From: Ginglymostoma cirratum
Taxonomy: Eukaryota
NCBI GenBank assembly: GCA_024137785.1
Contig: JAHRHZ010000040.1
Location: 9,184,418 to 9,248,417 of the forward strand
Direction: 5' to 3'
DNA length: 64,000 nucleotides
Program-made: the position numbers and the translations under genes
The notes under the pieces: generated by a model
Told to the model about the DNA's origin: nothing
Seen by the model: the letters and a program-made list of their open reading frames with translations, nothing else
The model's database searches: none
Part shown: piece by piece, positions 2,100 through 64,000 of the stretch
How the letters are laid out: each line of letters starts with the position of its first letter
Position numbering within the stretch: the first letter of the stretch is position 1

Positions 2100-3075
2100 G
2101 GGCGTTCTCGACCACTGTGGGGGGGAAGTTGCGGTCCTTGAAGAATGAGGACATCTGAGCTGTATGGGAGTGGAATGTCTCATCCTGGGAGCAGATGCGG
2201 CGGAGGCGAAGGAATTGGGAATAGGGGATGGCATTTTTGCAGGAAGGTGGGTGGGAGGAGGTGTATTCCAGGTAGCTGTGGGAGTCAGTGGGCTTGAAAT
2301 GGACATCGGTTTCTAGGTGGTTACCCGAGATATACTGCATCCGCTGTACCTGTTGTGGCTTCCTCTACATCGGGGAAACCAAGCGGAGGCTTGGGGACCG
2401 CTTTGCAGAACACCTGCGCTCAGTTCGCAACAAACAACTGCACCTCCCAGTCGCGAACCATTTCAACTCCCCCTCCCATTCCTCAGACGACATGTCCATC
2501 CTGGGCCTCCTGCAATGCCACAGTGATGCCACCCGAAGGCTGCAGGAACAGCAAATCATATTCAGCCTGGGAACCCTGCAGCCCAATGGTATCAATGTGG
2601 ATTTCACAAGCTTCAAAATCTCCCCTTCCCCAACCGCATCCCAAAACCAGCCCAGCTCATCTCCACCTCCCTAACCTGTTTTTCCTCTCACCTATCCCCT
2701 CCTCCCACCTCAAGCCACACCCCCATCTCCTATTTACTAACATCATCCCGCCCCCTTGACCTGTCCGTCCTCCCTGGACTGACCTATCTCCTCCCTACCC
2801 CCCCCACCTACACTCACCTTTACTGGCTCCATCCCCGCCTCTTCGACTTGTCCGCCTCCTCTCCACCTATCCTCTCCTCTATCCATCCTCTATCCGCCTC
2901 CCCATCTCTCCCTATTTATTTCAGAACCCTCTTCCCCTCCCCCATTTCTGATGAAGGGTCTAGGCCCGAAACGTCAAGTTTTCCTGCTCCTATGATGCTG
3001 CTTGGCCTGCTGTGTTCATCCAGCCCCATGCTTGTTATCTCGGATTCTCCAGCATCTGCAGTACCTTTTATCTCT
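2100..3075. mobile_element. Penelope-like element with 5' inversion: RT C-terminal part on minus (2100-2331), GIY-YIG plus tail on plus (2331-3075)
   Basis: Minus: TDVHFKPTDSHSYLEYTSSHPPSCKNAIPYSQFLRLRRICS. Plus: IYCIRC...YIGETKRRLGDRFAEH...LGTLQPNGIN, then a pyrimidine-rich tract and the conserved tail. Confidence 0.92.
2944..2979 (+). ncRNA. Minimal type-I hammerhead ribozyme motif, intact core
   Basis: attt-CTGATGA-A-GGG(tctagg)CCC-GAA-ACGT-C-aagt: conserved core, 3-bp stem II, palindromic ACGT stem III, 4-bp stem I; predicted cleavage after C2975. Confidence 0.75.
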
Positions 3076-8859: not shown

Positions 8860-9880
8860 TGAGGGATATTCTGTAGATCTCCATATCATGAAAGATGGAG
8901 GAGCATATCTGCAGGGAAATCACAGATGTGCAAAAGCAAAAATGTTTTGGGGACTTTAATTACCTGAATATTGCTTGGGATGATGCCATTTGAATAGTGT
9001 GTAAAGAGGAGGAGGAATTTTGTTCCTGGCCTAACAGTAAAGGAGGCATTGGAGATAACAAGCATGGGGCTGGATGAACACAGCAGGTCAAGCAGCATCA
9101 TAGGAGCAGGAAACCTTGACGTTTCGGGCCTAAACCCTTCATCAGAAATGGGGGAGGGGAAGAGGGTTCTGAAATAAATAGGGAGAGAGGGGGAGGCGGA
9201 TAGAGGAGGGATAGAGGAGAGGATAGGTGGAGAGGAGGCAGACAAGTCGAAGAGGCGGGGATGGAGCCAGTAAAGGTGAGTGTAGGTAGGGGGGTAGGGA
9301 GGAGATAGGTCAGTCCAGGGAGGACGGACAGGTCAAGGGGGCGGGATGATGTTAGGAGATGGGGGTGTGGCTTGAGGTGAGAGGAAAAACAGGTTAGGGA
9401 GGTGGAGATGAGCTGGGCTGGTTTTTGCTGGATCTGAAGCTGAAGAATGTCCAGGTGCTTGTAAGGGAACATTTGCTTCAAGTGATCAGTGAATTCTAAA
9501 ATTTAGATTATTAGGGGAGAAGAACACGGGTCAATCTAAATTAGAACATCTAAACTGGAAAAGGATCAACTTAAATGGTATGACAAAGGATCTGGCCAAA
9601 GCAAATGGAATCCAAGACCTACAGGAAGAACAGTAATGAAATAGTGTGAGCCTCAAGCTGGAGATGCTTAAGGTACATGTTAAATATATTGCAACAAGCA
9701 TGAAAGGCAAGGGAATCAATGTTTTGGGTGATGAGAAAAATAGAGAAAATTCTGAAGCACTTCGCATAAACTCTTCATGTTCGGACCAGGCCGAATACAA
9801 CAGGTTGAAAGTGGAAGTGAAGAGAAAAATAACACAGCAAAGAGATAACATGATAATAGGGTAAAACCCCCAAATCTTCT
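8860..9880 (+). mobile_element. Degenerate CR1-clade LINE fragment, interrupted by a PLE tail
   Basis: Remnant gggactttaattacc (GDFNY); aaggaggcattg|ctggatctg (EALLDL) is split by the insert at 9052-9427. Confidence 0.65.
9052..9427 (-). mobile_element. PLE 3' tail (pLTR-like) with intact hammerhead motif at 9114-9149
   Basis: Near-identical reverse complement of about 2640-3042; the minus strand reads catttCTGATGAAGGGtttaggCCCGAAACGTCaagg. Confidence 0.9.
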
Positions 9881-13500: not shown

Positions 13501-14080
13501 GGTTTGGAGAGATAAGGTAACCCTATCAATGTGATTCTGGATAACATTTTGGAGTTAGGCACTCTTGGTGAGGGAAAAGTCCGTGCTGCTCCTGGTAGGG
13601 GGACTGGTAGAGTTAAGTAACCTGACAGGAGCAGCAGATATCCTAGGGTGATGGTAGTTATGTATTCTTTGGGATTATTAACAGTAGAGAAAGTTGTGTC
13701 TGAACACTTTGGAGCTGTAAAGCTGTGAAAGGCTTGTAAAACATATTAATAACTGTCAAGAAATGTCAAATCTATTAACAACTGTCAGTTTTTATTTCAT
13801 GAATGAAAGTGGTCTACTACACAGAACTTTAAAGAATAGTTTTCCTCCTGTGCACATGGTACCAGTAGATACAAGGTGAATTGGGACAGTAAATAAAGAG
13901 GAAAGGATGGTAGGTGGAAGTATGCACTAAGTTGGCATAGAGGGTAACAGGAATCATGGGGATGGATGGACGGCATTGGGTACTATGTCTTGGCATGGAT
14001 GAGCAGGGAGGAATGTCTAGGGGTGAAAGGCAGTGAGGAAATGTGAAGATAGAGAGCTGGAGAGATACTTTGTTTTATTA

Positions 14081-15608
14081 TAACAAGGTGTAGAGCTGGA
14101 TGAACACAACAGGCCAAGCAGCATCAGAGGAGCAGGAAAGCTGACATTTCAGGTCTGGACCCTTCTTCAGAAATGGGGAAGGGGAAGGGGACACAAATAA
14201 ATAGAGGGGGAGGTGATGATGGAAGGTGGATAGAGGAGCAGATAGGTGGAGAGAAGACAGACAGATGGGGATGGAGCCAGTAAAGGTGAGTGTAAGTAGG
14301 GAGTTGGGATGGGGTTGGTCAGTTGGGAGGGAGGGGTGGGCAGGAGGGAGGTAAGACGGACAGGTCAAGGAGGCAGGGATGAGGCTAGTAGGTAGGACGT
14401 GGGGGTGAATGGGGGTTGGTCAGTGAGGTGGGAAGAGCGGATAGGTGGGAGAAAAGATGGACAGGTCAAGGAGGCAAGGATGAGCTGTGCTGGTCTTGGG
14501 ATGGGGGTGGGGAGATTTTGAAGCTTGTGAAGTCCACATTGATACCATTGGGCTGCAGGGTTCCCAAGCGAAGTATGACGTGCTGTTTCTCCAGCCTTCA
14601 GGTGGCATCATTGTGGCACTGGAGGAGGCCTAGGATGGACATGTCGTCCAAAGAATGGGAGGGGGAGGTGAAGTGGTTTGCGACTGGGAGGTGCAGTCGT
14701 TTGTCACGAACCGAGTGTAGGTGTTCTACAAAGTGGTTTCCAAGCCTCCGCTTGGTTTCCCCGATGTAGGGGCCACATTGGGAACAGCGAATACAATATA
14801 CCACATTAGCAGATGTGCATGTGAACATCTGTTTAATGTGGAAGGTTTTCTTGGGGCCTGGGATGGGGGTGAGGGGTGAGGTGTAGCGGCACGTGTAGCA
14901 TTTCCTGCGGTTGCAGAGAAAGTGCCAGGGGTGGTGGGGCTAGTGGGGAGTGTCGAGTGGACAAGGGAGTCACGGAGAGAGTGGTCCCTCCGGAAGGCAG
15001 ATAAGGGTGGGGAGGGAAAACGTCCTTGGTAGTGGAGTCAGATTGCAGGTGGCGGAAGGGGCGGAGGATGATGTGTTGGATTCGGAGGTTGGTGGGGTGG
15101 TGTGTGAGGACGAGGGGGGTTCTGTCTTTGTTGTTATTGCGGGGATGGGGCGTGAGGGATGAGTTGCGGGAAATGCGTGAGATGCGGTCGAGGGTGTTTT
15201 CAACCACTGTGTAGGGGAAATTGCTGTGGTTGAAAAATGAGGACATCTGGGATGTGCGGGAGTGGAATGCCTCATCTTGGGAGCAGATGCGGTGGAGGCG
15301 AAGGCATTGGGAATACGGGAAGGCATTCTTGCAGGAAGGTGGGTGGGAGGAGGAGTATTCTAGGTAGCTGTGGGAGTCAGTAGGCTTGAAATAAGTATCA
15401 GTTTCCAGGTGGTTGCCAGAGATGGAAACAGAGAGGTCCAGGAAGGAGAGAGAGGTATCGGACATGGTCCAGGTGAACTTAAGGTTGGGGTGGAAGGTGT
15501 TAGTAAAGTGGATGAACTGTTCGAGCTCCTCGTGGGAGCACGAGGGGGTGCCGATATAGTCATCGATATAACGGAGGAAGAGGTGGGGGATGGGGGCAGT
15601 GTAGCTGC
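14081..15608 (-). mobile_element. Penelope-like element, 1.5 kb, 5'-truncated (RT C-terminus, GIY-YIG, tail), perfect 11-bp TSD
   Basis: FLRYIDDYIG...FLDLSV...YFKPTDSHSYL (14833..15696-); VVYCIRC...YIGETKRRLG (14598..14828-); TSD ttgttttatta at 14070-14080 and 15609-15619; decayed hammerhead at about 14139-14174. Confidence 0.95.
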
Positions 15609-16499
15609 TTGTTTTATTACTTTCTTTTAATTTTGCACACAGTACCCAGCCCTTCCTCAGCACTTCCTGGGTTGCTTGGCCTGACTTCCGATTCATCTTG
15701 GATCCCCAGATTAAAAATGAAAAGTGTGAGCGGCCATTTTAAAGTACTATTCTGTGGAGCTCACATTTCTCCCACCTCTACACACCTATGCCAGAAGTAA
15801 AAGTCAGAACCACTAAGCTACAGTGGTGGCACTAATAATCCCCTACACATACTTGTAAGAAGTCACCAAATTTTTATTATGTGATAGAAAAGGTAAATCA
15901 GAGCCCCAGATTTTCATTTATGTATATAAATAGATTAGAATGGTTAATATGGGAAGCATATTTTAGATTAATGCCAATAAGATAGTAAATACAATGGGTG
16001 AGAATGTAAATAATTGTAAAAGAGCTTAAAAAAAAACCAAAACAAGAGCAGATAATAATGTGTGCATAGTTCAATGTAATACATTCTGAACCTATGAATA
16101 CCAAATGTGTGAATTTCTTTAGTCAAATTTGCATCCCTTCCTGTTATAGTACCAAAACGCCTCTTACCAAAATCATAATTAAAATCCTGTGAGACTGTGA
16201 TAAAGAAGAACTATCTTGCATCACCCTGGCTGTAGCATTCCATGTAACTGATCACACAATTTTCTGTCAATGCCTCTCTCTTATTGTCTGGCTGGGCAGG
16301 AGTACCGTCACTTACATCATAGGAGCAGAAATCCTCATGTGTTGAAGAGAAATATTTGGGAGCTGAATATAAGAAGAGATCGAACTGTGGAGCCAAATGG
16401 AGTAAAAAGCTGTTTAAGATTCAGTATTGTGTGATGAGACAGAGAAATCATTCATCTCATAGTAAAAGATCCTCTGGGAAATAAGCAATGACACAATTT

Positions 16500-17390
16500 A
16501 ATTCCAAAAGACATTTGAGAGTGACATACACAAGTCTAAAACAAAAATCTTAAATTTAAATAATTAAGGTAGAGGTGGCTTAGGGCTAGTTGGGCAAATA
16601 AGCTAAAATGAAAGGTGATAAATAAGAAATTGGAAACATTTAAAGAATAGATTTTATGCTCAAGAAAATATATTCCATTAAGATTAAAAACTCACAAGAA
16701 AGATCTATCTGTAGCTTACTAAGAAAGCCGGGGACTGTAGTAGATTAAAGAAGGAGGTGTATAATATCACAAAGAATAGTGGGTTCGGATAGACTTAGTA
16801 ACCAGCAAAGGATGACTAAAGAATTGGTAAAAAGAGAAGAAATAGCAAGAGAATAACAGGTGAATATAGAATAGATTGTAAGAGTTTTCACATGGGTATG
16901 ACAGGGGAAGTAGCTAATGTAAATATAAGATGCAGAAACAGGTTAGCTGGTTAAGCATCACCTGTTGAGAAAGGAAAATAAAATTACATTTCAAGTCAAT
17001 AATCTTTCATCAAAAAAGTTCTGAGTGGTGATCATGTTAAAACATAGAAGATTCTGAAAGGCAGACACAGAGGGTTTGCTTTCTTTAACAAGGGAATCTA
17101 GAACATTGGCACAACGCCAGAATAAAGGGTCAATCAATCAAGATTGAGATGATTAGACATGTTACTTTACACAGACGGCTGTACATCTTTTGAAGTTTCT
17201 ACCCCAAAGTACTATGGATACTGCATCACTGAAAACAGTCAAGATTGAGATCAACAGATTTTCTTGGTCTCTCAGGAAATCAAAGGATTAGGGACACTTG
17301 GGACTGCAGAGTTAGGTAGATGATCAGTCACGTTTGTATTGAGCAGTAGAGCAGGCCAGAGGGGCCTCATGCTTCGATTTCTTATCACGT
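16500..17390 (+). mobile_element. Old CR1-clade LINE fragments
   Basis: Recognisable tether region and 3'-end motifs (agaataaagggtcaatca, gattgagatcaacagattt, gagcaggccagagggg). Confidence 0.6.
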
Positions 17391-21000: not shown

Positions 21001-22235
21001 ATTACCTTCAGCTGTTTCATGGCATCACAGAGTGAATCAAACTGACATCTGTGATGCAGGAGACCTAAAGAGGATGAATTACAATAAGAAATGGATTTGT
21101 CTACTCACATTTCTGGTTGAAGATGACTGCAGAGTTTGGATCTGATCCATTAGTTTTGTGATTGCTTACTCCTATCTATTGCATGCTGTCTGCTGCTTAG
21201 CATGCAATTTGTCTTGTAACTCTGCTAGGGTAACACCTGATTTTTAGATATGCCTGGTGCTGCTCCTTGATACCTTCCTGCAAGCTTCATTAAACTAGGT
21301 CTAATCTCTTCAAAAAATATCTTGTGTGTACTTTTTTTAAAATTATGGACTGATTTAAGAAAGATCGGTTTCAAAACCAGTGTTTTTCTAGGATTGCTAC
21401 ATGTTTTGAAAAGCAGGTGTGGTGAGCATCGTTTAAACAGCTGCCTAATCAAACAGTAACTGAAATTTGCAGATGAACTGGCACTGAGGGGCTCTGTATT
21501 CAGATGGCACTTTGGTTGGCGACAAGAATTTGATTAGTCAATTATCAGTGACAAAAGCCTTTCACCCGCCAACAACTATATGGGTGGTTCTCAAGTAACT
21601 GGAGAGGTTGAGGCTAGGAATAAGATATCTAGATATCTTCCACCTCAGGAGCTGTTCCTGTTTTCTCCAGTAAGCCACTTTGAACCTGAAGAAAACTTGT
21701 TTATCATTCCTACGGCAGTTGCTGCAAGTTATGACTTTTCATTGACAAGTGAAGCGCCATGCTGTGCTCTTTGTAAACCAATAGAAGTATTTGGAAAAGG
21801 ATAAGAAGTATTCTGATCAGCTGAAAAAAAAAACCTCAAAAAATCTAGTAAACAAAGACAATTGAACTGCTTTCCTATTTTACCTCAATGTACTTTTCTT
21901 TCCCCTGCATCTGTCTGTGTGCACATAAGGCAGAGTCTTAAGAAGCTTTAATTAGTAATGTTATTTGCTGATGGTTTATAAGGGCTTACATGTAGCTAGG
22001 TTCCAATGACTTGTAAGAAAAACACTAATACTTGTTAAGTACAGAAACCTGCTTTGAATTTTCTAACAACCAGAGTTTGAAAATCAGTTAAGTTGGGGAA
22101 TTTTGCATGTTTTGGAATCATTAACTTTTGTGACAACTCCAGAAACTGCAGTGCACTACCTCAGTGAGTCATGTCATTGCTCAGTTCAATGGTAATGTTC
22201 CACTGGGGATTAAAAAGCCATAATGTTACAGATTG

Positions 22236-22382
22236 AAAAAAAAAAGTGGACGCTGAAAGACAGAAACAAAACCAGAAACTAGTAGGAAAACTCAGTAGGT
22301 CTGGCAGTGTTCCGAAGAAGGGTCACTAGACCTGAAAGGTTAACTCTGCTTTCTCTCCACAGATGCTGCCAGACCAGCTGAG
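22236..22382. mobile_element. Mini inverted PLE-tail element with decayed hammerhead, 11-bp TSD
   Basis: Minus-oriented tail 22236-22309 joined to a plus-oriented piece starting ttccgaagaagggtcactagacctgaaaggttaact; TSD gttacagattg/gttacaaattg at 22225-22235 and 22383-22393. Confidence 0.75.
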
Positions 22383-23564
22383 GTTACAAATTGTGTTGGC
22401 TGTACAATTCTGCTGCTGCTGTTGATTGCCCATGGTGGCTCATTCATGCTCAGTTTTGAACTGCTAGATCTATTCAAAGTCTGTCCCATTTAGCACAGGG
22501 ATAGTGCCAAAAACACACACAGTAAAAAAAAAGTGAATCCTGGTGAAGATGAAGTCAAGATTTTCTCCTTCTTGTTGATATTTCATTATCTGTTACAGAT
22601 CCAGTTTTAGTAGCTACATTCTTTGGGAGTTGGTCAGCAATGGTTTCACCAAGTTACTCTTGTGAAGGACATCCATAGTACATTCTGTGCCTTTCCCACC
22701 CTCAGTACATCCTCCAAGTGGGTTCAGCAAAGGGGGCTGGAAGGTTGCAATCAGCAGTTGATTAGCTGTAAGGTATGATTCTGTGAGAATGAGGGTATTA
22801 GGCTGCTTGACTACAGTGTGGGACATCTCTCAGATGTTGGGAAGGAGGACTTTGCAAAGATGACACGTTTGTATTTGCTGTTGGCCTTTGTGTTGCCAGG
22901 ATGGATGCTGGGTGGACTACACAACATCATTCCTTTGTAGCTGCTTGATACAACTGAGTGTCTTGCTAGACCATTTCTGACAGCAGTTAAGAACCAATCA
23001 CATTGCTTTGGGTCTGGAATCACATGTTGACATGACAAGCTAAAAATGGCAGATCTCCTTCCCTAAAGGACATTAATGAAACAGTTGTCAGTTTTTATAA
23101 TCAAATGAAAGCAAAATACTATGAGGTTTGAAGATCTGAAATTAAAACAAACTACTAAAGACTTAACAAGTCTGGCAGCATCTGTAGAGACATACAGAGT
23201 TAATGTTTCAAGACCAATATAGTTTTTCTTTGGAATTCACAGGTTTCTCTGTCATTTCCTGTTTTAAATAATGGGCCATACTTGTTTGATTAGTAAGCGG
23301 AAACATTTCTGCACATCTTTCCTCTAAGATTTTTACAAAACAAATAGCTTGAAACTTGAGTACCTAATAGTTGAAATAGCACCTGATTATTATTGATTTT
23401 AACTTGTGAAAACTTTTGAAATGAAACGACACCTCCAAGAACCAATAATAAAAAATAAATGTTTGCAGACCTCTCATGGCAAGTTTCACACCCAGTATGC
23501 CCTTTCAATGCTGACATTTTTGTGCTTCACTGCTGACAGACACTGCATACAGGACAAAATAACT

Positions 23565-31193: not shown

Positions 31194-32577
31194 TTGATGT
31201 GAAGGTGCCAGTGTTTGACTGGCATGGACAAGGTCAGAAGGCATACAACACCACGTTATAGTCCAACAGGTTTATTTGAAATCATAAGCTTTCGGAGCAC
31301 TGTTCCTATCTCAGGTGGAGTGAAGAGAAACACACAAGTACATAGTTTATAGGCAGAGGGATCAAAAGATCATACAAATGGTGTGAGTGGAGTGTCAACA
31401 GGCTGAATAGCAAATGAAGGGATGACCTATAATCCAATTAACTGAGGCAGAAAGACAATTACAAAACATTAAAAATTAAAAATAAGGTGGCTTTAGAAAT
31501 AAACCAAATGGCTAGAATAACATGATAGGTATAAGAGTCACATGCTGAGGGTCTAACCAAAGTAACAAGCAACCCAAACTGTACAAACTAATTAAGGTGG
31601 AGAGATCACAACAAGTTATCAAGGTGATAGTGTCAAGATTTCACAGATACAAAACAGTATGGTGAGGTTACATATATTGTGACATGAACCCCAGATCACG
31701 GTAGAGGCCATTTTCATGGGTACGGAACTAGGCTATCAATTTCTGCATGGCAATTCTGCATTGATGTATATCTCCAGGGCTGCCTTGGAGGATGCTTAGC
31801 CGAAAATCAGACGCTGAATGTCTTTGACCGCTGAAGTGTCCCCCAACTGGGAGGGAACATTCTTGTTTGGCGATTCTTGTGCAGTGTTCATTCATCCATT
31901 GCTGTACTGTCTGCATGGTCCCGCCAATATACCATGCCTTGGGGCATCATTGCTTGCAGCATATAAGGTAGACGATATTGGCCGAGTCGCATGAGTATCT
32001 GTCATGTACGTGGTGGGTGGTGTTCTCACATGTGATGGTAGTATCCACGTTGATGATCTGGAATGTCATAGCAAGGTTGTGTGGTGTTGTGGTCCATGTT
32101 ATCCTGAAGGCTGGGTAGTTGCTATGAACAATGGTCTGTTTAAGGTTTGGCAGTTGTTTGAAGGTGAGAAGTGGAGATGTACAGATGATCTTGGCGAAAT
32201 GTTCGCCGTCATCAATGACATTTTGAAGGTTGTGAAGAAAATGGCGTAGTTTCTCTGCCCCGGGGAGAATTTTAACTTTTAACTTTTTTTTTTGTAATTA
32301 TTTCACTGCTTCAATTAGTTGGATTATAGGTCATCCCTGCACTGGTTATTCAGCTGTTGACACCCTACTGACACTTTTGATCACCTGCAGAGTCTTATTA
32401 TTCAGCCTGCTGATACTCCACTGACACCATCTGTATGATTGTTTGATCTCTCTGCCTATAAATTACGTTGCTGTGTGCTTCTCTTCACTCCACCTGATGA
32501 AGGAGCCGTGCTCCAAAAGCTTGTGATTTCAAGTAAACCTGTTGGACTGTAACCTGGTGTCATGTGACTTCTGACCT
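31194..32577 (-). mobile_element. Second Penelope-like family: GIY-YIG-containing body on minus, inverted copy of the tail at about 32270-32577
   Basis: Minus strand reads CDSANIVYLICCKQ*CPKAWYIGGTMQT...H...LPVGGHF; 31230-31330 is the reverse complement of 32480-32577; hammerhead motifs at 31283-31317(-) and 32491-32525(+). Confidence 0.88.
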
Positions 32578-33420: not shown

Positions 33421-33515
33421 CTGTTATTGTTATACTGCCGGTGGAAAAAATTTGAAGTGTGGCTTTTAACGCTTTAACTCTATAAGATGCTGCAGGATGC
33501 AGTTCTGGCTCGTAG
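33421..33515 (-). CDS. TBPL1: TBPL1 coding exon 5 (YEPELHPAASYRVKALKATLQIFSTGSITIT), 95 nt
   Basis: Acceptor ttctctcttgcag|C, donor G|gtatgt; YEPELHP and IFSTGS motifs of the second TBP repeat. Confidence 0.97.
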
Positions 33516-33800
33516 CTGCAAGAGAGAAAAAAAACAGTGGAATTTCAGTAACTAAGTAAAATAATAAAAAAAAGCACAACTACTTACAATGTAGTTTGAG
33601 ATTATTTTAAAAAAAAACGAGGGACAGAAAAGAGTCGCTTCAGTGAAATAAATCAAAATTCTGAACATACACAGCAGGTCCGTCATTATCTATAAGGAAA
33701 AATTGTGAGCTTATATTTGGGATAGTGACTCCTTATCTATTCTGGTCTTTTTCATTTGCATTAGCAGCATAGTTATTGTCAATAATTTCCAAGTTCATAC

Positions 33801-33904
33801 CTTGCAATTGGCCGATTTCTTTTTGTGAATTCTGGTAGCCTTATTTCAAATGGCATTGTGCATACAGCCAGGACATTGACAACTTTATAGCCAGCAAATT
33901 TTAC
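33801..33904 (-). CDS. TBPL1: TBPL1 coding exon 4 (VKFAGYKVVNVLAVCTMPFEIRLPEFTKRNRPIA-S), 104 nt
   Basis: Acceptor gttttaaag|GTA, donor AG|gtatga; KVVNVLAVC and MPFEIRLPEF motifs. Confidence 0.96.
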
Positions 33905-34149
33905 CTTTAAAACATCAAAAAAAAAGTTGTTTTAAAAACATGATCTAACAATGTTCTACAATGTAGCTAAATATCTGCCCAGTATTAGATTCATAGTTGA
34001 CAGTGAAAATACTCAAATATGAAAATATTCAAACATCTGGCACATGTAATATTTAGAAAATGCCTTCCTCTCTTTGGCACCAAAGTTATTATTCAAAACA
34101 TGCTGATGGCATATACATCTTCCCTGTACTGGTTGTAATTATTTGATAT

Positions 34150-35240
34150 ATATTTGTAGCAATCTAATTATTTATCACTAGGGGGAAGACAAATGGATAG
34201 CACAAAACTATCTTAAATTATATAGTTGCAGAACTGACAGGCTGTAGCAAATACTGCAAAGATCAATGTATGGGCCGAAGTCAATTACAATCCGTATTCA
34301 CAACTTAGGTGACAGGAGACAGCGCTGTTTACAAGTGAGGGAAATTCAAAGTGGCTACAAAATGAACCAATAGACGTGGCCGGGCCAAAGACTTGCAAGA
34401 TGGAATTATTATGTGGGAAAATGTGAAGATGTCCATGATGGTGGGAAAAGTAGAAAGCAGAGTATTCTTAAATGATCTTGGGAAAGTGTTCATATTCACA
34501 AAGAGGAATTAAACGTGAATTACACAGAGTTAACAGGTAGATACAGCAAGCAAATAGGAAAGCAAATGGTATTTTAATCTCTATTGCAAAGTGATTAGAA
34601 TAAAGGATTACATAAGTCTAAACTGCAGTTACGCAGTACTTCTATGGTCTCACCAAGGCCCTGTGTACAGTTTGCTTTCATTACTTGCCTTAGAGTAAGT
34701 GTACCAAATGCTCACCAAACTAATTTCGGAGATAAGTAGCAAACAAAAACAAAGTTGCTAGAAAAGCTCAGCAGTTCGGACAGCATCTCTGTGAAAAAAG
34801 AATCAGAGCTAATGTTTCAGGTCTGGTGACCCTTCCTCAGAACTCAGAACACAGAACACAGTTGTGAGGAAGTGTCACTGGACCTGAAACGTTAATTCTG
34901 ATTTTTTTCTTCACAGATGCTGCCAAACCTGCTGAGCTTTTCCAGCAACTTCTGCTTTTGTTCCTGATTTCCAGCATCCACAGCTCTGTCGGTTTTGAGA
35001 TAGGTAGATTGCCCTCTGAGGAAAGATGGGAGTAAATTAGGCCGAATATATTAATTCCCTCAAGTTTAGAAGAATGAAAGGTGATCTCATTGAAACATAT
35101 AAAATTCTTTAGTGATTTGACAGGGTACGTAATGGTGGGTGTTTCCCTGGCTAGAGAACCATTGCCTCAGAATAAGAGGTCAACCATTTCAGACTGAATT
35201 GAGGGAAAATTTCTTTAGAAGGTTGATAACCTCTTGAATT
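34150..35240 (+). mobile_element. Degenerate CR1-clade LINE (RT to 3' region), interrupted at 34740-34996
   Basis: Remnants aaatgtgaagatgtccat, aagcaaatggtatttta, agaagaatgaaaggtgatctcattgaaacatataaaattc. Confidence 0.7.
34740..34996. mobile_element. Palindromic mini-element made of two head-to-head PLE-type tails, each with a hammerhead motif; 11-bp TSD
   Basis: 34741-34844 is the reverse complement of about 34860-34962; TSD gagataagtag/gagataggtag at 34729-34739 and 34997-35007. Confidence 0.85.
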
Positions 35241-36237
35241 TAGGTCATCCCTCATTGTTACACTAATAGCACCTTTAATTAAAAGAGCCACCCCTCCATT
35301 CTTCCCTTTGTTTCCTGTCCTTTCTAAATGTCAGATACCTTTCAATATTCTGATTCCAATCCAGGCTATCCTGCAGTCAAGGCTCAGTTATGGCCACTAG
35401 ACTGTACTTATTTATCTCAATTTGTACAACCACCTGATCACTATTTTTTGATTAGTTTGCGATGCAGTAATGCCATCAGCATGGTTTTGTTCCCACAATG
35501 GCTGAGGCTACCATGGAGTACTCTCCTTTTCAGCCATTCATCTCCTGTTAAACCATCATCAGTTCTCTCTCTCTCTCTCTATAATGAGAACAGCCCTATA
35601 GTGTGTTAAGATTTTGGTGACTTTACCTTTACTGTAATTCATACTGAATTGCCACACTCAAAGAAATGGATCGGAATAAGCTAGAAAAATTGGCATTGCA
35701 ATTTTTTTGGTCAGAAAATATTATCCATAATTAGAGGTAAAGGTAAAATAGATAATCAAACAGAAGCAGCTATTATCAATTTATTTCAAGATTTAAGGAA
35801 TAATACAGAAAAGCCAAAACTAACCTACTTTGAGAAAGTGAAATATGTACTTAAGGGACTTCAGTTACTTTTTGTTCTGTTATTATTATTTCGATTATAT
35901 TGGCTATTTTGGAATTCAGTTATACTGTTAATTTTGCAAAGCAGCTTCAGAAAAGCTATCTCACACCACTGTATTTAACAATGTATGAAACATAACTTAA
36001 GGTAGTGTAAGATTTGGTTCAAAAAAATGCTCCATTTTAATTTCTCACACTGTAATCACACTGAGTTGTTTAGCATGTTTGGAATATGCAGACACGAAAG
36101 GGAACTCACTTGGTAGTAATTAAGACTTAAACTAAAACATTAAATAGACAATCCTTGACCCCTTCTGGTATACTTATTTGGTAACCAATGGATTAAGTAC
36201 TACAACTTCACAGCATTCACATACTATATTTGAATTA

Positions 36238-36430
36238 CAGGTAGTCCTCCTTTAACGCAATAGTTGCATTCTTGTGTGACCTTGCACCATAGAAAATCAC
36301 GTTATAGGGAGATCACTACAGAAAATCGCTATACCTGAAAATTCGTGTTATCCAAACAGTGTCCACTATTCATCAATCACGACACAGCCAATTCGCGTTA
36401 ACGAAACAAGCACAATAGCAGAACTACCTG
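36238..36430. mobile_element. Tc1/mariner-pogo (Tigger-like) MITE, 193 bp
   Basis: Terminal inverted repeats CAGGTAGTcCT.../...AGaACTACCTG; TA on the left flank, AA on the right. Confidence 0.75.
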
Positions 36431-36789
36431 AACATGGTTCACAGCAAGATGCTGTTCCAGAAAAATTCCTGAAGGAGCAGGGAACTTTGGCGATAATTTC
36501 CTGACTTCCAAGTTTATATGCACATGTGCAGAACCAAGAAATTTGTGTCTGATTTATTCCTCAGCCATAGCAATAGCTGACAGTTTCATTTTAACATTTA
36601 GTGCAAAGTTCAGATCATAAAACTATGCATGTACAACAGCTTCTTCTGGTTCTTAAGAGCTTTATTTGGAATCAGAAAGTGTAAGTGAGCTACTACGTTG
36701 CTGGTATTAATTTCATAACTCCTTGTTCTGCATGTTAACTATAGTATGAAGACAATATTTGATTAGCACAAATTATAAATTATACAAGA

Positions 36790-38300
36790 TATCGAGGAAG
36801 GCAAGGGAGGAGATTGCTGGGGCCTTGACAGGGATCTTTGCATTCTTTTTAGCCTTACGTGAGATCTCAGAAGACTCAGAATTGCCAAGGTCATTCGTTT
36901 GTTTAAGGAGGGCAACAGGGATAATCTAGGAAATTATAGACAAGTGAGCCTTACATCAATAAAGTTATTGCAAAATATTTTTAGGGACAGGATTTACTTG
37001 CATGTGGAAAGAATGGACTTACTAAGGATAGTCAGCGTGGCTTTGTGTGGGGTAGTCTTGTTTCAAAAATTTGAGTTTTCTGAGGAAGTAACAAAGATGA
37101 GGGTAGGGCAATGGATTTTGTCTACATGGACTTTAAAGCTTTTGATAACGTTCCTCATGGTATGCTGGTCTGGAAGGTTAAGTCATATGGGATCCGTGCT
37201 GAGTTGCCAAGTTGGATACAAAATTTGGCCTAGTCATGGAAGATAGAGGATATTGTGGAGGGATATTTTTCTGACTAGAGGTCTGTGACAAGTGGTGTTC
37301 TGTAAGGATTGGTACTGGGATCTCTGTTGCTTGCAATATATATATAAATGACCTGGATGAAAACATAGGCGGTCTGAATAGTAAGTTTACAGATGACACA
37401 AAAATTGGAGAATTTGTACTTAATAAGGAAGGTTGTCAAAGGATCCAGAGGACATCCTTGCTCGAAAGGTTGACAGAGAAATGGCTGATGTCATTTAATC
37501 AGGGAAAGCGTGAGGTGATGCATTTGACCTTGCAAAATGTAAGACGAAAGTATACGGTAAATGACAGGACCCCTTTCATTGATATACAGAGGGATCTTGG
37601 GGTGCAAGTCCATTGAGCCCTGAAAGTGGCAGCACAAAAAATGGTTAAGACAGTAAAGAAGGCATCTGGCACAGATGCCTTCATCAATCAGGCCACCGAG
37701 TGTAAAAATTGGTAAGTTATGTTGCAGCTCAATATAGCTTCAGTTAGGCCACATTTGGAATATCGTGTCCAGTTCTGATCATCACATTATAGGAAGGACG
37801 TGGAGGCTTTGGAGAGTGCAAAGAGGTTTAACTGGATTTTGTCTAGTTTGGAATGTGTTAGCTGTAAGGAGAGGTGGGACAATATTGGATTGTTTTCACT
37901 AGAGCATCAGAGGTTGAGGGGTAACCTGATAAAAGTATATAAAATTATGAGAGGCATGGATAGGGTGGATAGTCAGACTGCTCTTCCCAAGGTGGAAACG
38001 TCAAATATTAGGAGGCAAAGGTTAAGGTGAGAAGGGGTAAGTTTAAAAGACATGTGCAAGGCAAGTCTTTTTTTTTACACTGAGAGTGATAGGTGCCGAG
38101 AACACGTTGCTAGGGGAGGTAGTAGAAGCAAGTACAATAGCAACATTTAAGAGGCATTTGGACAGACACATGAACAGGTAAGGGATAGAGGGATCCAGAC
38201 AATGTGTAGGAAGATGGGATTAGTTTAGAATGGCACCATGATTGGCATGAACATAGTGGGTGAAGGGTCTGTTCCTGCGCTGTATTGTTCTATGTTCTAT
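36790..38300 (+). mobile_element. CR1-clade LINE, RT domain to 3' tail
   Basis: FKEGNRDNLGNYRQVSLTS, SKFTDDTKIG, RPHLEYRVQF, GLFSLEHQRLRGNLIKVYKIM; ends tgttctatgttctat. Confidence 0.92.
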
Positions 38301-39918
38301 TAGTTACACATTGTTAAGCACCTCAGGTGAAACTCAGCTGCTCCACTACCTGGCCCTCACTGTACCTGGTAATATTCAATCACATCAAAAGGTTATCTGC
38401 AAAGCCATCATCTTTTTTATATCTGCTTGAGAGATGTGGGCATTGCTGGCCCAGCCAGCAATTATTGCCAGTCCCTAACTGCCCTTGAGAAGGTGGTGGT
38501 GGTGAGCTGCCTTTTAAATCGCTGTAGTCCATGTGTATTACTTCTGAACCTTTATTGCTGAAATTCTAAGTCGCTAACGTTTTGTAAATAGTCTCCTCCA
38601 AGGTGGTCCTGTTGATTTTTCCACTTGTGCAATCCACAAGCCGTAAAAGACATGAATTACCGAGTTCTGTGTACTCATAACACCCACATTTTCATCACTC
38701 CTGGTCCCAGCAACATCCAATGGCTTACCGTGTTCTAGAATTCTTCGTCTTAACTTTCACATCCCTCCAAGATTTTAGTCCTGCCTATTTCTGCTGTTTC
38801 CTCTAGCACTATATTGTTATATAAAAACTTATGTGACACTTTACAAAGTTACCCCATCACATTCCTTTCATCTTATCAACAGCAGTTGCAATTTTAAACT
38901 TTCTCTTTGATTTCAAAAGTTCTCAGTCTTTTTTGATCCGCTTTCCTTTAAAAATTGTTCTGTAACACTTTCCATAAGGTAATCAGCATGATAAAACTGT
39001 TAATAATAGGCCTTGTATTGTTGTGCATATGCTTAGGAATTAAGAGGAAGAAAGCCTCTTTAAAGTAGTATCACATTATAAATATCCACCAATTTTTTTT
39101 TTGCTGGAATGTAAATTCTCCTAGAGTCACCCCATTCTAGGCTGCATAGGTGACAACTGTAATATCATTGGGCTCAATTTTATGGGATAGGAGATGTGAG
39201 GGGCAAAATAATCAGGGAGGTTGTGCCAAGGCTTTAGTGTCCATCACCTACGCGCCACCATAGTATTTTGCCAGTGGCAGAGGAAGTTGGGGAAAGTCCT
39301 TGCTGTCCAGAAAGTGATTGTGTCACCAACGTAGCTCCTTCCTTCTAGAGTAGCATACACTAGGTTGTGCGGCTCATGTAGGTCCCTTTCTGGGTGGCTG
39401 TGCTCCTTTCCCTTATCAATCACCACCCTCCCCTTTATAAAAACTCGCCTGACACTCCGAGGCTTCTTGTTGACGCAAGAAAATCTATTAAACATCAAAG
39501 CAATATTTCACATTCATGTCCTCTTAACAAAAATCCTTACCTAGACCTTACTAGTCTTTTAAGTAAGACAGAATAGTGATGCTAAGGAACGGAATTATAA
39601 AATATTAGCGTATTTGGCCAGCTCAATTTAACACCACAGGTTTGCACTTGAAGGTAAGATAAATTTAATAAGCTGGGTAGAATTTAAACAAAGTAAGACA
39701 TACAAATGAAATCAAACCTCTCTCTCACCAGAGTTCAAAATTTAAACTTTAGCAGAGTATAATAGCAAATGAGTGCAAAACTTATAGAGAAAAGGACAAA
39801 TTGTGTAAAAACTAGACACCAAGAATTTAAATCATTAGTTAAAACTTATGTGATCTGAGTGATTTCAACAGTTTGATATTTAGACTTACTATACAAATAT
39901 AATGTACAAGTGAATTAC

Positions 39919-44340: not shown

Positions 44341-44429
44341 CCCTCCTGCCATTCTTATTGTGTTTCTTTATTTTGTTCAATTATTCATTTCCTTTTTCAT
44401 AATTTATGCTAAAGGATAGTTTAACCAGC

Positions 44430-44555
44430 TTCTGAAGAAGGGTCCAGACCAAAAATGTCAGCTTTCCTGCTCCTCTGATGCTGCCTGGCCGGATGTGTTC
44501 ATCGAGTTCTACACCTTGTTATCTCAGACTCCAGCATCGGCAGTTCCTACTATTT
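44430..44555 (+). mobile_element. Short PLE tail starting at a decayed hammerhead
   Basis: ttCTGAAGAAGGGtccagaccaaaaatgtcagctttcctgctcctctgatgctgc...cagttcctactat. Confidence 0.85.
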
Positions 44556-45449
44556 CATACATACTTTGTTTCGTTGGAAGACACATTTGTCTTCACGGTT
44601 TGCAATCTATTGTTTTCCCTGAGCATGTCTTAAACTGGATATCTCTGCAATGTAATGCACATCACTAGCTCAATCCCTTGCGCCCAGTTCCAAGGTAAAA
44701 TATGCATTTGTGAGGAAAACTTTGTAGTTAGCACTAGTCAACCTCAATGTTGATACTTACGTGGATTACACTCACTGAACCCTTTCATATCAAGTTCTTT
44801 CCTATTCATGAGAAACATCCTTAACCCTGGCACCAAAAAGGCATCCCTGGCAACCAATGAAGTTCTCAATGCAGGGAACCATATTTTCAACTATACTATG
44901 CCCTATTTGCTTCTCCCTTTCAAAAAGCCTCCTTCAGCATTACCATAATTAGTTTGCTCAAATAGCCACCCAAAGAGCATCTCATATACAAGTAGGGAGC
45001 ATTTTGAATTTTTTGGGTGAAGTCGAAGGACAAGGCTCCTCCAGCACAGGAGGCGGACCCCCCTAACCGCTTCATTCATAGTAACCTATCCTCAATTGTT
45101 AACCAGAAACATACCTTACCCAAGTGGTAAAAAACATCCTCCTGAATAAAAAGTGTTCAAGAAACTCTCCTGATGCCCTGCGGCTTAAAATTTTGCCCCA
45201 ACAATTCTAAGTTGAAATTCTTTAATATGGAAGATATTTACTGCAAATATGGCTATCCTGGATGACAACGATTTTGACAACACCCTGGAGCTGCTGTCTC
45301 TACCTAACATTCTGTTATTTAATCACTGTAGATCGAGGAAAAAGTCAATTCCATTTTTACAGACTTAAAAATCATGTTTTGGGTATACTTGCCAGAAAAA
45401 TTAAACAATAACCCCACCAACTTTCAGCCATGGCATGCTAGGCTTGCAT

Positions 45450-46720
45450 TACTAGTGAATGTCAAATTTACCCCAACAAATGCACATTGCACCTTGGAAC
45501 TGGGTGCAAGAGATCAAGCTAGTGATGGGTGTTACATTGCAGAGATATTCAGGACTTCCAACGCGCTCAGGGAAGACAATGGATGGCAAACAGTGAAGAC
45601 CAATGTGTCTTCAAACAAAACAATGTATGTATGAAGCTGGCTAAGCTAAAAGTCATAATATTTGCTAACTTGACAGATTACTGTGGCAAAAAGGAATTTA
45701 ATGTTTGTGAACATCTGGTATCTCAATGGGAAGAGGAATCCACCCTGAAGGGGGTCAATACACCACGAGAACAGGAATTAGCCACTGCCCTAATCATGAG
45801 AAGCAGATATCAGAATGGGTCCACAAAAACTGAGTGGTATAATCATTATCAGAAATGCAACATGTGTATATATATTTAAATAGGCCTAATCAAATCGCAA
45901 GCCCATCAAACATTTCAGAGCAACAGGTAGTTCATGTGGCTGCTTAACAGAACAAAAAATGTCAAATGTCGTGGTTGAAAACCAAGATTACTCAGCGATT
46001 ACTAAAATACCTGTGCCGAAGTTACTAGTTACCAAAAGTTCATCATCAGAATGACAAATCATGAGCAGCCATGATACATTAGCAACATGAAGGAGTCATG
46101 AATTTCAATATGCCCAGTAATTAATCTGTGGAATGGGAACATTTGATAATTGTTTTAGCAATAACCAAACCACGTAAGAAAAGATGGAATGAGGTTATGG
46201 ATCAATGACGCGTGGTACGTGTATCCTGGCGGCCAATATAAAGAATGCAGTGTATTGGTCTGGTGCACATTCAGATACCATGTAATTGACGAAATGAAGA
46301 CGTGCCTATGAAGCAAATATACACTCATTGCAGTAATTCCTGGGGGTCCAACAGCTGTGATTCAACCTTTGGATGTGTGCCTCAACAAAATAATCAAGGA
46401 CCATGTTCACACTAAATGAAATTGGCAGATGGTTGTTACAGAAAAACCTTCACAAAAAATGGAAATATGCACACTATTGTTTTGCGTAGTTTTGTCCTTA
46501 AATTGTGGGATGCTGTTTTTCTACAAAGTGCAAAGATATCATTTGGAGATGTGCAATTTTCAATGGATGGAGAGGAGAATGACTTGTTGTGGAAGGATAG
46601 TGCCAAAATCTGATCCAGACTGCAATCTCTCTGATGATGCCATAGATAAGGTGACTCAAGTGAACCTGATGACCTCTCTACACCAAAGACAAAGAATTTG
46701 ACAAGTTTAAAAATGTTTGC
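45450..46720 (+). mobile_element. pogo/Tigger DNA transposon remnant (POGK-like: Brinker-type DBD + DDE_1), pseudogenised
   Basis: N-terminal KLKVIIFA...KEFNVCEHLVSQW; DDE region MRLWINDAW, LVWCTFRYH and LIAVIPGGPTAVIQPLDVCLNKIIKDH at about 46190-46405. Confidence 0.85.
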
Positions 46721-54570: not shown

Positions 54571-55139
54571 CAGAGAGATTAGAACCAGGGACAATTTTTT
54601 TGAAAATGTATTCACATTTACATTTTGGCCACCATGTTTTCAGGGGCAGTTAAGTTGCCTTCTTGCACTACTGTGGTCCCTTTGATGTAGGTACATTTGT
54701 AGTGCTATTAGGAAATGGGTTCCAGAATTTTTGATCCAACAAGAGTGAAGGAACAGATATACTTCCAAGTTACATTTTTCCACTATTCTTCCATTGGATG
54801 TCCATGTTTCTAGAAAGCCAACATTTATTGCCCACCCTTAACTACCCTGAGTAGTTTGATAGGTTGTTTTAGAAAGTAGTTAAGAGTCAACTCCATTGAT
54901 CTGAGTGTTTAGTCACTTGTAGGCCAGACTAGAAAAGGAAAGCTGTCATCCTTATCCAAGGGACATGAGTCAACCAGATGGTTTTGATCTTACAATAGCT
55001 GCAGGGTCACCATTACTGAGACTAATTTGCAACACTACTTACACTTTGCTGCAGCAGTGGTATCACTCTAGGTCCTCAATCTGCACCTCTCAGCAACACA
55101 GAAAAAATGCTGCGCCTCAAACAAGTTCTCAGATTGATC

Positions 55140-55660
55140 CCGAAGGTTGCAGGAACAGCACCTCATATTTCGCTTGGGAACCCTGCAGCCCAATGGTCTC
55201 AATGTGGACTTCACAAGCTTCAAAATCTCCTTAACCCCAACCTCATCCCAAAACCAGCCCAGCTCGACCCACCTCCTTGACCTGTCCGTCTTTTCTCCCA
55301 CCTATCCACTCCTCTCACCTCACTGACCTACACCACTCCCAGCCCCTACCTACCAGCCTCATCCCCGCCTCCTCGACCTGTCAGTCTTCCCTTGAATGAC
55401 CAACCCCCATCCTAACTCCCCACCTACACTCACCTTTACTGGCTCCATTCCCGCCTCCTTGACCTGTCCATCTCCTCTCCACCTATCTGCTCCTTCATTC
55501 ACCTTCCATCCGCCTTTCCCCCCCTCTCTATTTATTTCAGAATCCCCTTCCCCTCCCCCATTTCTGAAGAAGGGTCCACGCCCAAAACGTCAGCTTTCCT
55601 GCTCCTCTGATGCTGCTTGGCCTGCTGTGTTCATCCAGCTCCACACCTTGATATCTCAGA
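55140..55660 (+). mobile_element. PLE 3' fragment (GIY-YIG end + tail), 13-bp TSD
   Basis: RRLQEQHLIFRLGTLQPNGLNVDF; hammerhead with G12>A at about 55560-55595; TSD tctcagattgatc/tctcagactgatc at 55127-55139 and 55654-55666. Confidence 0.92.
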
Positions 55661-58039
55661 CTGATCTATGTTTTATGATTAATTGTAGATATTATAAAAA
55701 GAACAAAATTTAATTTTAAAAAAGGGACTTGATTACCAGTTTAGATCCTGCTCCAATTCTGTTTTGCTGGAAGTCCAGTTAGCCCAGAGTCCTAGCAAGC
55801 AATATTGTGGAAGATCAACTCATTAGCTCAATAATTATTATAGTTTGGATCTAGAACAGCATTTTTCAGCAATCTTATTTCAAATATCAAAAGTACGTTA
55901 CAGTACAAGAGCCAGTATGCCAGGTGATTTCCCAATCTTGATAACATGATCTGAAGCTACGGGCAAAAACTGAACATTCATAAGCTGATGGCAATTTCAA
56001 CTCTACCAACAATTAGTCCCAAATTAATTTCAACATGTATTCACTCAGACCATTTCCTCACAGAGAACATCACAACAATGCCTTTAAAAAATGGGCCAGA
56101 TTAACTTTTTGGCAACGAACCATCACAGTTATTATCATTCCTGATATCTTATAAGTAATGCTAGCAGAACCAAGATAAAATAAATATAAAATTCCAAACA
56201 TTGTGCTGGCATCTGTAGATTTGTTTGCAATTGCAGGGTTATTCAGCAAATTCTTCTGCAGCAAGAAAACTGGGTTTGCAAATATTGCGACTTGGAAGGG
56301 GCACCTTCTTTTATTTTTGAAAAGATGAAGTGTGTAAATTGCCATTTTTGTTTATTCTTGATTACAGGTATCAAGCAACCTGCATGCTTTTTTTTGACTA
56401 GATAAGATCAAAACCCAAGATGGCCCAGGCCTATTCTTGAAACATCATGCTCTCCTCATGGGTTGCGGTATTATTATATGAGCATGATATACATCTGAAT
56501 ATTAACAAGCCCACATCTGCAAACAAAGCTAAAGTAACAACATCTATGAACATTCACGGATAATACAATGTCTGGTAAGTTTCACACGTTTTCAATGTTT
56601 GGAACATTTTAAAGAATTTTATGCGGGACAAGGGTGGAGGTGAAGACCACATTTAGCTAAAGTACAGTGCAGACACAAGGTTCTCCAATGATGCTGTTAG
56701 TCAGATCGTTCATAATTGCAAAGCGTAAAGATTACAGATTTATAACACAGCAAACTATTTGTAGCTAGTTTTGATTGAGCCCTGATATAAAAAAATTAGC
56801 CAACGTCATCACGTCTTGTTACAGTGCGATAACATGAAGCTGGACACATGTCCATGCCAGACTGGTATGATGATGTATGACTTGGGGCTAGAGAAGAAGC
56901 AAATATAAGATTTTGAAAACTAGGAGAAAGAGTAAGCAATTCAGCCCCTACAGCCTGCTGGAGGTTATGATCTGGTAATGCACCTGTTGCCTTCGTCCTT
57001 CAAAGTGCTGTAGAACACAAATTAGTGAGGTATTTCTAAAGAAGTTTTGGCAATCCATGAATAGTACAGACTACAGCCATACCACAAAGGCAACTGATAA
57101 ATAGGTGCCAATCAAGCAGACCATACCTGGGAGATGTTGAGCTTTTCAAGTGTAACTTCAGTTGCATCCACCCTGACGAGTCAAGAGTACTCCATCACAC
57201 TTCTGGCTTGTGCCTTACGGTGGTGGAGAGGATTTCTGGACCCTAGTGTTTGATGTGTTGATGGTGTGAACATGGCAGTGCTGATGCTGCTGAATGTCAA
57301 TTAGTGGTAAGGTGCTTAATCTGAAGATGGTCACTGCCTGGTAATTCTGCAATACAACAATTATTTAAAGATTTAACAGCCCAAACCAGGGCTGTCCATG
57401 TCTTACTGTTTGCAGACATGGACTACAGAATTATTGGCGGAATTGCAAATAGAGCTGACCGCTATGATGTCATCAGAAGTCAGCTCCATTTCTAACTGTA
57501 TAATGAAGGAAAGATCACCAATAAACCAGTAAGGGCTAGGAATGAGAATAATGTCCTGGGGCTTAGGCGTGGCTAGACTAATTAAAAGGGGGATGATTAA
57601 GAACTGAATTAGAAAGGATTTGGAATTAGAAGGGTTGTGAAGTTTGGACAGTGAGTTTGAGGAGAATTGTCAGAGTGTAGGATGGGGAGTGCTGAGGAAG
57701 ATGACAGAAGGCCTGGCTAAGTTCACTGCTTTGTTTTTCGCACACTACTGTGATGCTATTACTCAATGTAGCTGTCAGATAGCTTGATACAAATATTTCA
57801 GAAGGTAAACTTCCAAGTTTTGACCTCAAAACGTCTCAAAGTATATCACAGCCAATACTATTTTGGAAATGCATTTATTGTTATATTTATAATCATGCCT
57901 TTAATCTCAAAGTGATTCAGAGAAGTAAAATCTGACAGAACTGGATGCCAAAACAAAGAAAACATTAAGGCAGGTGCCAAAGCAGAGGGGAATGAGCACA
58001 CTGGTTCAGCGTCAACTGAACTGAAAGATCCCATCCAAT

Positions 58040-62405: not shown

Positions 62406-64000
62406 CCCACTTAATAGACATCTGCTACAATTACACGCACAAAAGCAAAAGACTACCCTCCAAATGAGAGTGCATTACATAAACTAAGTTGAAATTTCAA
62501 CACCATTCATCTGTATTACGACAATGAGTTGGAACCTCAAAATACTATAGATGTTTTCTATAATTTGACTTTAAAAAGAGAAATAGAATAATAGCTAGTG
62601 CAAAAAAAACTCTGCGTGGGTCTGATAGGAAGTAACATTGAAAGGTGTCAAAGAAAATTCTAACAGGACTGTGATCTCTTATGGCTCCAACAAAAATGAG
62701 AGGCTGACGATCTGCAAACCACCCCCAATGGATTATGCAGACACATGTTTTGTTTCTCCCCTTTGAAGAATACGCAAGCACAGGGTTAAAAGCCAGTGGG
62801 ACGGAACCTTCTCACGTATACCAGACCGAGTGTAATGGATGTGAGTAATCTCGTTCGGTGACTGACAGTCAAAAAACCATCCTCTAGTCGCTCCCTTGCT
62901 GCAGTTAAATACTCTCTTTCACTCAAGAGTGTTGCAAGTGAGTTAAAAAAGAAAAAAAAAAAGGATAATAAAAGCACTCTCTCACCCTAAATGCTGGGAT
63001 TCAGTCATGACCAAAAGGAATCAGAACTACAGTATCTCATCCACTCAGCAATAACTAAGGATCACGAAACGATTGTTTAACGACCGCTGCCGCTAACCCC
63101 CACTGTGATAGCTGCATCATTCAGCTCTCTGTTCTGCACAAAAAAAATGTGCAGACTGATCTATGTACTTTTTAAAAAAACTTTTATCTTTTCAGACTCA
63201 CCCCGTATTACTGATCTATGCAAATGTATTGCAATTCTAGTTCTTCTTGCATCTAGCAATTAAAAATGCACACTTTGTTAACTCAATGCCAAAAGTATTT
63301 ATTGACCATTCCCAACTGCTCTAAGTTGTTGGTGAGCCACCTATCTGAATGGCAACAAACACATAGTGTAGCTGAGAAGTGAGTCCCAAATTTTGGCACA
63401 CTTAAAGATCAATTTTAAACAAAAGTTTAAATAAAAGCACAGAGCACAGGAGATACTCTGGAGCTCTGGGAGCATGTGTGCTGACAGCGTGCGAGCAAGA
63501 GTGAAAGAATGAAAGGGTTCAAATCTAACTCTTCTACGTAACTAATTCAGGCCGAAGAAGTTATAACGACCAAAACTAAATGTTGTTCTCTCCACAGATG
63601 CTGCCACAATTACTTTCTGCTTGCATTTCAGATTTCCAGCATCTTCCAATACTTTTTTCTTACTTTAAATGATCTATTCTCAGCTCTTGCACATCAACAG
63701 CCTTTTATATGGTTGTCATCTAGATATTCCTAACAAGTTTCCATTGGGGCTCCTAAGCTTATTTCTAGGCATTCACATGCTGCATTTACGATTCAACAGA
63801 TCTTACCACCTCCTGTTTCTTCAAATGTTGAAGTTCATCTTCCTCCTGAGGCAAAACGATCAAGATTCAATTGTTGGCTGGAATTACCTGTGAAAACACG
63901 AAGTGAACATGACAAACTAAAACACTGTAGTGCATAACTCGGGAAATTATATTTTAATTCTTCTGATTACATCACAAGTTCAGAAAATGAGGACAAAGAA

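Follow-up and report, generated by a model that had tools for sequence, protein, structure and literature searches.

A palindromic insert in an intron of a TBP-family gene

At positions 34740-34996 of the window (the whole 64,000-nt stretch of Ginglymostoma cirratum DNA analysed here), a 257-bp palindromic insert interrupts an intron of a TBP-family gene; the 3' splice site of that intron is ~830 bp away (Table 1). The minus-strand exons were assigned to the TBP family with Pfam model PF00352, which scored above its cut-off in two of the four exon pieces tested, and the exon is clearly distinct from that of TBP itself; we take the gene to be TBPL1. A public contig (X2-9) splices 33421-33515 to 33801-33906.

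Table 1. Positions of the insert, its surroundings and related elements in the window
Feature	Positions	Strand	Evidence or remark
Host intron, TBP-family gene (approximate limits)	33907..39915	-	exon matches, spliced contig
Older LINE fragment split by the insertion	34514..35126	+	flank alignment to window paralogue
Left TSD, 11 bp	34729..34739	+	sequence GAGATAAGTAG
Left arm: inverted tail-less PLE end repeat (pLTR fragment), 5' end at apex	34740..34844	-	
Minimal hammerhead motif, host-gene strand	34807..34844	-	sequence; predicted buried in hairpin
Apex: two extra 7-nt copies and one C	34845..34859	.	sequence repeats
Right arm: direct copy of PLE end repeat	34860..34962	+	alignment to family A end repeat
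Minimal hammerhead motif, C3>G at 34864, broken stem II	34860..34897	+	predicted inactive
One-sided 34-bp extension, the PLE "tail"	34963..34996	+	loose-end piles; optional homologous tail in family A
Right TSD, 11 bp, one mismatch to the left copy	34997..35007	+	sequence GAGATAGGTAG
Second two-armed family copy with 11-bp TSD and another junction	22225..22393	.	element 22236-22382
Probable third, decayed head-to-head pair	63427..63663	.	inverted arm, nhmmer E 7.9e-4
Sister PLE family A: GIY-YIG ORF, then homologous hammerhead end repeat with tail	2276..3075	+	
Family A copy: RT-like and endonuclease remnants, tail-less end repeat	14080..15738	-	
Copy of an unrelated PLE family (C): endonuclease-like remnant between long inverted arms, the focal layout plus a body	31195..32577	-	

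The insert is built of two arms of ~103 bp each (34742-34844 and 34860-34962), with 14 mismatches among 101 aligned pairs, 10 of them transitions, and 5 additional gap columns. Both arms stop at the 5' strand of stem I of a hammerhead motif. Between them, the apex reads CAGAACA CAGAACA C and is preceded by the CAGAACT that ends the left arm, so that the final 7 nt of this arm recur there twice, with a T>A change, and one C follows. The right arm carries a 34-bp unpaired extension for which the left arm has no partner. All six frames contain a stop codon, no ORF spans the element, and its plus strand folds at -133.4 kcal/mol (z = -15.9), a value that none of 200 shuffles equalled. A prior sequence-only reading of this DNA had described a palindrome of two ~105-bp arms, a 7-nt stutter in the loop and a unit devoid of coding capacity, all of which our analysis recovered; its account of a 257-bp unit was likewise accurate, except that it passed over the tail on the right arm.

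The same reading had proposed that an 11-bp TSD with one mismatch flanks the whole unit, which entered an older repeat in a single event, and both proposals hold. Sequences within one mismatch of the 11-mer occur at only 3 of 63,990 window positions, two of which are the TSD copies themselves, and a direct repeat of at least 11 nt with at most one mismatch turned up by chance in 2% of 300 random pairs of zones (30x30 nt). When the two flanks were aligned locally and separately to LINE paralogues, both matched in one of three. In this paralogue (60560-61100), the match to the left flank runs up to position 300 and that to the right flank starts at position 290, with alignment scores of 95.0 and 58.5 against shuffle maxima of 66.5 and 56.5, respectively. 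Both TSD copies therefore map to the same 11 paralogue positions, and the LINE, presumably a CR1, is collinear across the insertion site, which indicates one insertion into an older LINE.

Orthologous contigs of a related species (organism B) differ from the source at 63 of 1,347 bases, and divergence between the two arms is about three times this figure. In two runs, organism B contigs cross the left TSD and enter the left arm for 30-31 bases; the minimum set for a bridge, 31 bases, was reached among the organism B runs in X5 only, and none of the listed orthologous contigs of this species covers the apex or the right junction. Since the left junction is crossed, the insertion is likely older than the split between the two species.

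Hammerhead motifs and Penelope-like end repeats

The hammerhead motifs were called by manual matching to the features published for minimal hammerheads (PMC4209133), because Rfam gives no hammerhead match: in the 64-kb window no model reached its gathering score, and the hammerhead is absent from the nine matches at E<=10. We discarded these nine weak matches, which concern microRNA-, snoRNA- and other models and score far under their cut-offs. The motif on the minus strand keeps all the core bases (C3-A9, G12-A14, A15.1, U16.1 and H17), with a G10.1-U11.1 wobble and loss of the 15.2-16.2 palindrome (34813). The core of the plus-strand motif is incomplete owing to C3G. This substitution is described to abolish cleavage in an anole PLE (PMC11167929), and the 15.2-16.2 palindrome to be needed for the hammerhead dimer (PMC4209133). 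Neither copy has the G10.1-C11.1 pair, G.U standing in its place in both, whereas the pair and the palindromic 15.2-16.2 are present together in the loose-end majority of the family contigs.

Thus, judged by their bases, both motifs are damaged. Inside the hairpin, stems I and II of both motifs have a predicted pairing probability of 0.000, and stem II reaches ~0.5 when the left arm is folded alone; damaged bases and hairpin fold together predict that both motifs are inactive. Their location on opposite strands further means that no single RNA holds two of them in tandem. Of the two head-to-head ribozyme motifs that had been proposed, what stands is that each arm ends at stem I; as a pair of ribozymes they are compromised by their opposite orientation and the damage to both.

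The anatomy of the insert matches the one seen in Penelope-like elements (PLEs), whose insertions are described as an end repeat next to an inverted 5'-truncated copy, with a tail of 30-40 bp at one end and a TSD (PMC8557442); in rotifer PLEs the TSDs measure 8-10 bp and the tail 31 bp (PMC3846280). Indeed, the focal element combines an inverted 5'-truncated copy, a 34-bp tail on one side only and an 11-bp TSD. Moreover, its end repeat is homologous, although not identical, to one that lies behind a GIY-YIG ORF in a sister family (family A), downstream and on the same strand; this ORF scores 24.6 bits with PF01541, above the cut-off of 22.6. Arm plus tail align to the family A end repeat with a score of 91.5 (1000 shuffles: mean 36.1, maximum 56.5) and in reciprocal nhmmer searches at E 5.9e-08, and the left arm is recovered at E 5.2e-06. 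Two further family A copies scored 72.0, above all shuffles (maximum 59.0), and 55.0, below the shuffle maximum of 58.5. The PLE origin advanced in the sequence-only reading is hence supported by both the layout and the homology to an ORF-linked end repeat.

Six copies of family A lie in the window (2276-3075, 7926-8018, 9052-9425, 14080-15738, 44428-44556 and 55139-55662). The tail is whole in three of them, the other three stopping at or near the tail-less end, and the copy at 44428 begins exactly at hammerhead stem I. In the copy with RT-like and endonuclease remnants, Pfam matched neither remnant; the RT-like piece was grouped by Atlas with PF26215 clusters (0.96), a placement that is not proof of PLE identity by itself. 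Directly behind the copy at 44428 starts an inverted repeat of ~172 bp (44554-44724 and 45463-45635, 81.5% identity) around ~740 bp, possibly a non-autonomous DNA transposon. The family C copy has arms of ~250-300 bp with hammerhead-like motifs on both strands; Pfam and TSD searches of this copy were blank, and its end repeat does not align with the focal arm. PLEs are reported to have expanded in whale shark introns (10.1101/443036).

Other copies of the family and the origin of the palindrome

The window holds eight units of the focal family (six firm and two weak), five of them single arms. The second two-armed copy, 22236-22382, has arms that overlap by only ~17-20 nt: one comprises family positions 61-122 plus the tail, the other positions 2-80, with a run of A10 at the end of the arm that bears the tail. 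The repeat flanking the probable third pair is weak and AT-rich. A TSD search of eight units in the window, copies of families A and C among them, found none for four (31195, 29888, 23125 and 44428), and units 63427 and 19697 have only AT-rich flanking repeats of 9-10 nt. Two single arms are very decayed (33645-33721, nhmmer E 1.2e-4, and 16935-17011, 0.007), and the former sits in the next intron of the same TBP-family gene.

Public contigs were placed on the element at 85% likeness, and 24 of 1,989 loose ends and the best-supported 15 of 514 joints were listed. Among these loose ends, contigs pile up at 34962 (85 in run X1, 507 in X3 and 394 in X5), a pile that mixes true ends with divergent tails, and at 34996 (72 in X1 and 53 in X2); the loose ends at 34844 are forced, since the reference arm ends there. 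Nine of the 15 joints listed run from 34843-34847 to varied points within 34880-34927. Listed joints occur in both organisms and several display 1-4-nt overlaps, although some of them (to 34902-34905) may have arisen where the alignment restarted at differences specific to a copy. We read apparent joints between opposite strands near 34797-34912 as switches from one homologous arm to the other and set them aside. Contigs also extend beyond 34844, where their consensus is shared in part (agreement 0.35-0.40), which makes longer family members probable; a search of the window for this further sequence found no match. Runs X1 and X2 were taken as RNA by guess, and X2 includes the spliced contig. 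The contigs cannot show editing, RNA ends or circles, and A>G/T>C tallies were discarded as dominated by paralogues. In viral and metagenome contigs, a 25-nt arm pattern had no match, whereas an 18-nt pattern hit 120 metagenome loci that we dismissed as chance, none of the 120 aligning over more than 34 nt (best, 40.1 bits).

Further palindromic copies, whose absence would have counted against the sequence-only reading, are thus at hand in 22236-22382 and in the contig joints. Their junctions vary from copy to copy, which argues that the palindrome is not the replicating unit. With good confidence, we regard the 257-bp insert as a dead, extremely 5'-truncated PLE insertion consisting of two head-to-head pieces of the end repeat, which a PLE enzyme likely laid down in one event. 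In the sequence of steps that we propose, a GIY-YIG endonuclease would nick the two strands 11 nt apart, and each nick would prime one cDNA; the first of these would begin at the end of the 34-nt tail, the other at a start site before the tail. Both cDNAs would halt at the 5' edge of hammerhead stem I, their 3' ends would join after the 7-nt stutter via a 2-3-nt overlap, and fill-in would create the TSD. The hairpin would then be a by-product of insertion. In support of such steps, the tail of an anole PLE spans the interval from one start site of reverse transcription to another, and the protein of this element nicks and extends both strands (PMC11167929).

Taken alone, the focal copy fits fold-back too, because both of its arms start at the same base. 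In 22236-22382, however, each arm contains sequence that the other lacks, whereas after simple fold-back all of one arm should be contained in the other. Barring a later deletion that left the TSD intact, this copy thus speaks for two nicks, each of which primed its own cDNA. Mobilisation by a PLE RT/GIY-YIG protein via twin priming or fold-back, as put forward earlier, is thus backed by the PLE layout, with the second copy leaning towards twin priming. The origin of inverted PLE structures has been explained in more than one way, self-priming being invoked in PMC3846280 and extension of both strands in PMC11167929. Short two-armed copies such as the focal one and 22225-22393 provide countable natural experiments on twin priming versus fold-back, and can also reveal whether the hammerhead stops reverse transcription. 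As a single old example of an insertion layout already on record, the focal element has its value as a mechanistic fossil.

The sequence-only reading had instead cast the hairpin itself as a ribozyme-bearing micro-element. That the whole hairpin moves as a unit, retrozyme- or MITE-like, by means of its two ribozymes could be suspected from the clean palindrome, the TSD, the missing ORF and the existence of other palindromic copies, but the differing junctions largely refute this idea, which we hold to be very improbable. Retrozymes need two units of the same sense in succession, but the motifs of the hairpin occupy opposite strands; C3G in one, the lost palindrome in the other and the null stem pairing in the hairpin speak against their use, and the tail on one side makes the ends asymmetric, unlike terminal inverted repeats. 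No contig crosses the apex among the 32 pieces listed of ~131,700, a weak argument in the same direction. Assignment to the non-LTR retrozymes, which comprise two or more consecutive units in tandem whose hammerheads are complete and of the same sense, was accordingly rejected, as was that to MITEs or fixed palindromic elements on account of the one-sided tail and the variable junctions. Even less credit is due to two independent back-to-back insertions of an abundant repeat, or a later duplication of one arm. The apparently great abundance of the family, the 14% difference between the arms (~3x the species divergence) and the unseen right junction in organism B would be compatible with such a history. 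Nonetheless, the two arms share a single TSD and neither has one of its own, the LINE continues collinearly on the far side of the insert, and the same layout with an 11-bp TSD recurs at 22225-22393.

The alternative that deserves more weight, although we consider it unlikely, concerns the template rather than the event: a non-coding PLE end-repeat derivative of ~137 nt, from stem I to the end of the tail, would be copied in trans in the manner of a SINE, as the SINE-like half of the sequence-only reading would have it. Palindromes would still be rebuilt at each insertion. All eight family units in the window measure at most ~140 bp per arm and start at or after the hammerhead, and a PLE body accompanies none of them as compared with four of the six family A copies (Fisher p = 0.015, post hoc), a count that would miss a body present in one copy only. 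One arm stops at the stem I edge in the nine joints mentioned, of the 15 listed and 514 in total, and so does copy 22308. Summed depth in run X3, ~3.1 million on the arm against ~11 on the unique flank, hints at a very large family, without being a copy number, and non-coding PLE derivatives are on record, namely the non-autonomous Chlamys elements (PMC8557442) and those of bioRxiv 10.64898/2026.07.22.740005. On the other hand, contigs extend past 34844 with partly shared sequence, and stem I is likewise the exact starting point of copy 44428, a member of family A, even though family A has an ORF, so that a stop of reverse transcription at the hammerhead explains the preference with no need for a separate RNA. 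The preferred stop would thus reflect either a short RNA that starts at stem I or an enzyme that stalls there. At the loose ends at 34844 and 34996, most of the family has sequence that resembles pyrimidine-rich 3' splice sites, both immediately upstream of stem I and at the tail end, and in Drosophila virilis a PLE intron is reported to end at helix I (PMC4209133); a splice or start site might explain the preferred stop.

A bolder version, for which we see slim chances, makes the family a very high-copy non-coding PLE parasite with an RNA that begins at stem I, and has the telomerase-related RT add 7-nt repeats in telomerase fashion before the cDNAs are joined. The PLE RT would re-align on the first nine bases of the RNA, which are bounded by AG..AG. 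If so, the apex would be a fossil of repeat addition by a PLE enzyme, and shark introns would have been seeded with self-made dsRNA hairpins. Re-alignment, however, predicts CAGAACT units, whereas the two extra units read CAGAACA, and no second stutter appears among the 15 of 514 joints listed.

Predicted RNA structure and comparison with known systems

On the host-gene (minus) strand, the element is predicted to fold at -133.8 kcal/mol, in line with the earlier suggestion of a dsRNA hairpin in the pre-mRNA, which is thereby supported as a prediction. Such a hairpin in the host pre-mRNA could be an ADAR target, and its editing is plausible by analogy with a lizard Penelope and a palindromic frog Harbinger repeat, both described as heavily edited (PMC5625713). 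Palindromes of this kind are a potentially large source of intronic dsRNA. Of the transitions between the arms, 5 of 10 keep a G.U pair on the plus strand and 5 of 10 on the transcribed strand; as neither strand is favoured, the hairpin bears no mark of selection.

The main texts of the papers searched gave no description of shark PLE stubs that are short and palindromic, although the focal family may well be catalogued already in Repbase or Dfam and published consensus lists might name it. Dispersed minimal hammerheads related to truncated PLEs, and pairs of them on opposite strands 100-700 bp apart, have been reported in PMC4209133, which is not known to name sharks. The metazoan PLE hammerheads described there share with the focal motifs the CUGANGA and GAAA core, the extra base between positions 9 and 10.1 and the short stem I, and with the focal family the palindromic 15.2-16.2, whereas the two focal motifs have both decayed.

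With the non-LTR retrozymes of animals (PMC7761336; bioRxiv 10.64898/2026.07.22.740005), the focal element has in common its non-coding nature, the type I hammerhead, the relationship to PLEs and the scale of 150-300 bp. Those retrozymes are described, however, as head-to-tail tandems with same-sense ribozymes that form circles, whereas the focal element is a head-to-head pair with damaged motifs on opposite strands. The closer parallel is with EN+ PLE units (Arkhipova et al. 2013, PMC3846280; Craig et al. 2021, PMC8557442), which likewise have head-to-head end repeats, a tail at one end, a short TSD and a hammerhead in the end repeat. Compared with these units as described, the focal element has no ORF remnant, both of its arms stop at the same base, its TSD is 11 bp long rather than the 8-10 bp of rotifers, and it bears a 7-nt stutter at the junction. 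Finally, in the Poseidon PLE of Anolis carolinensis (Frangieh et al. 2024, PMC11167929), two end points bound the tail just as in the focal element. Species and sequence differ and we infer the enzyme of the focal family, yet the nicking and extension of both strands described for Poseidon would yield the layout found in the shark intron.
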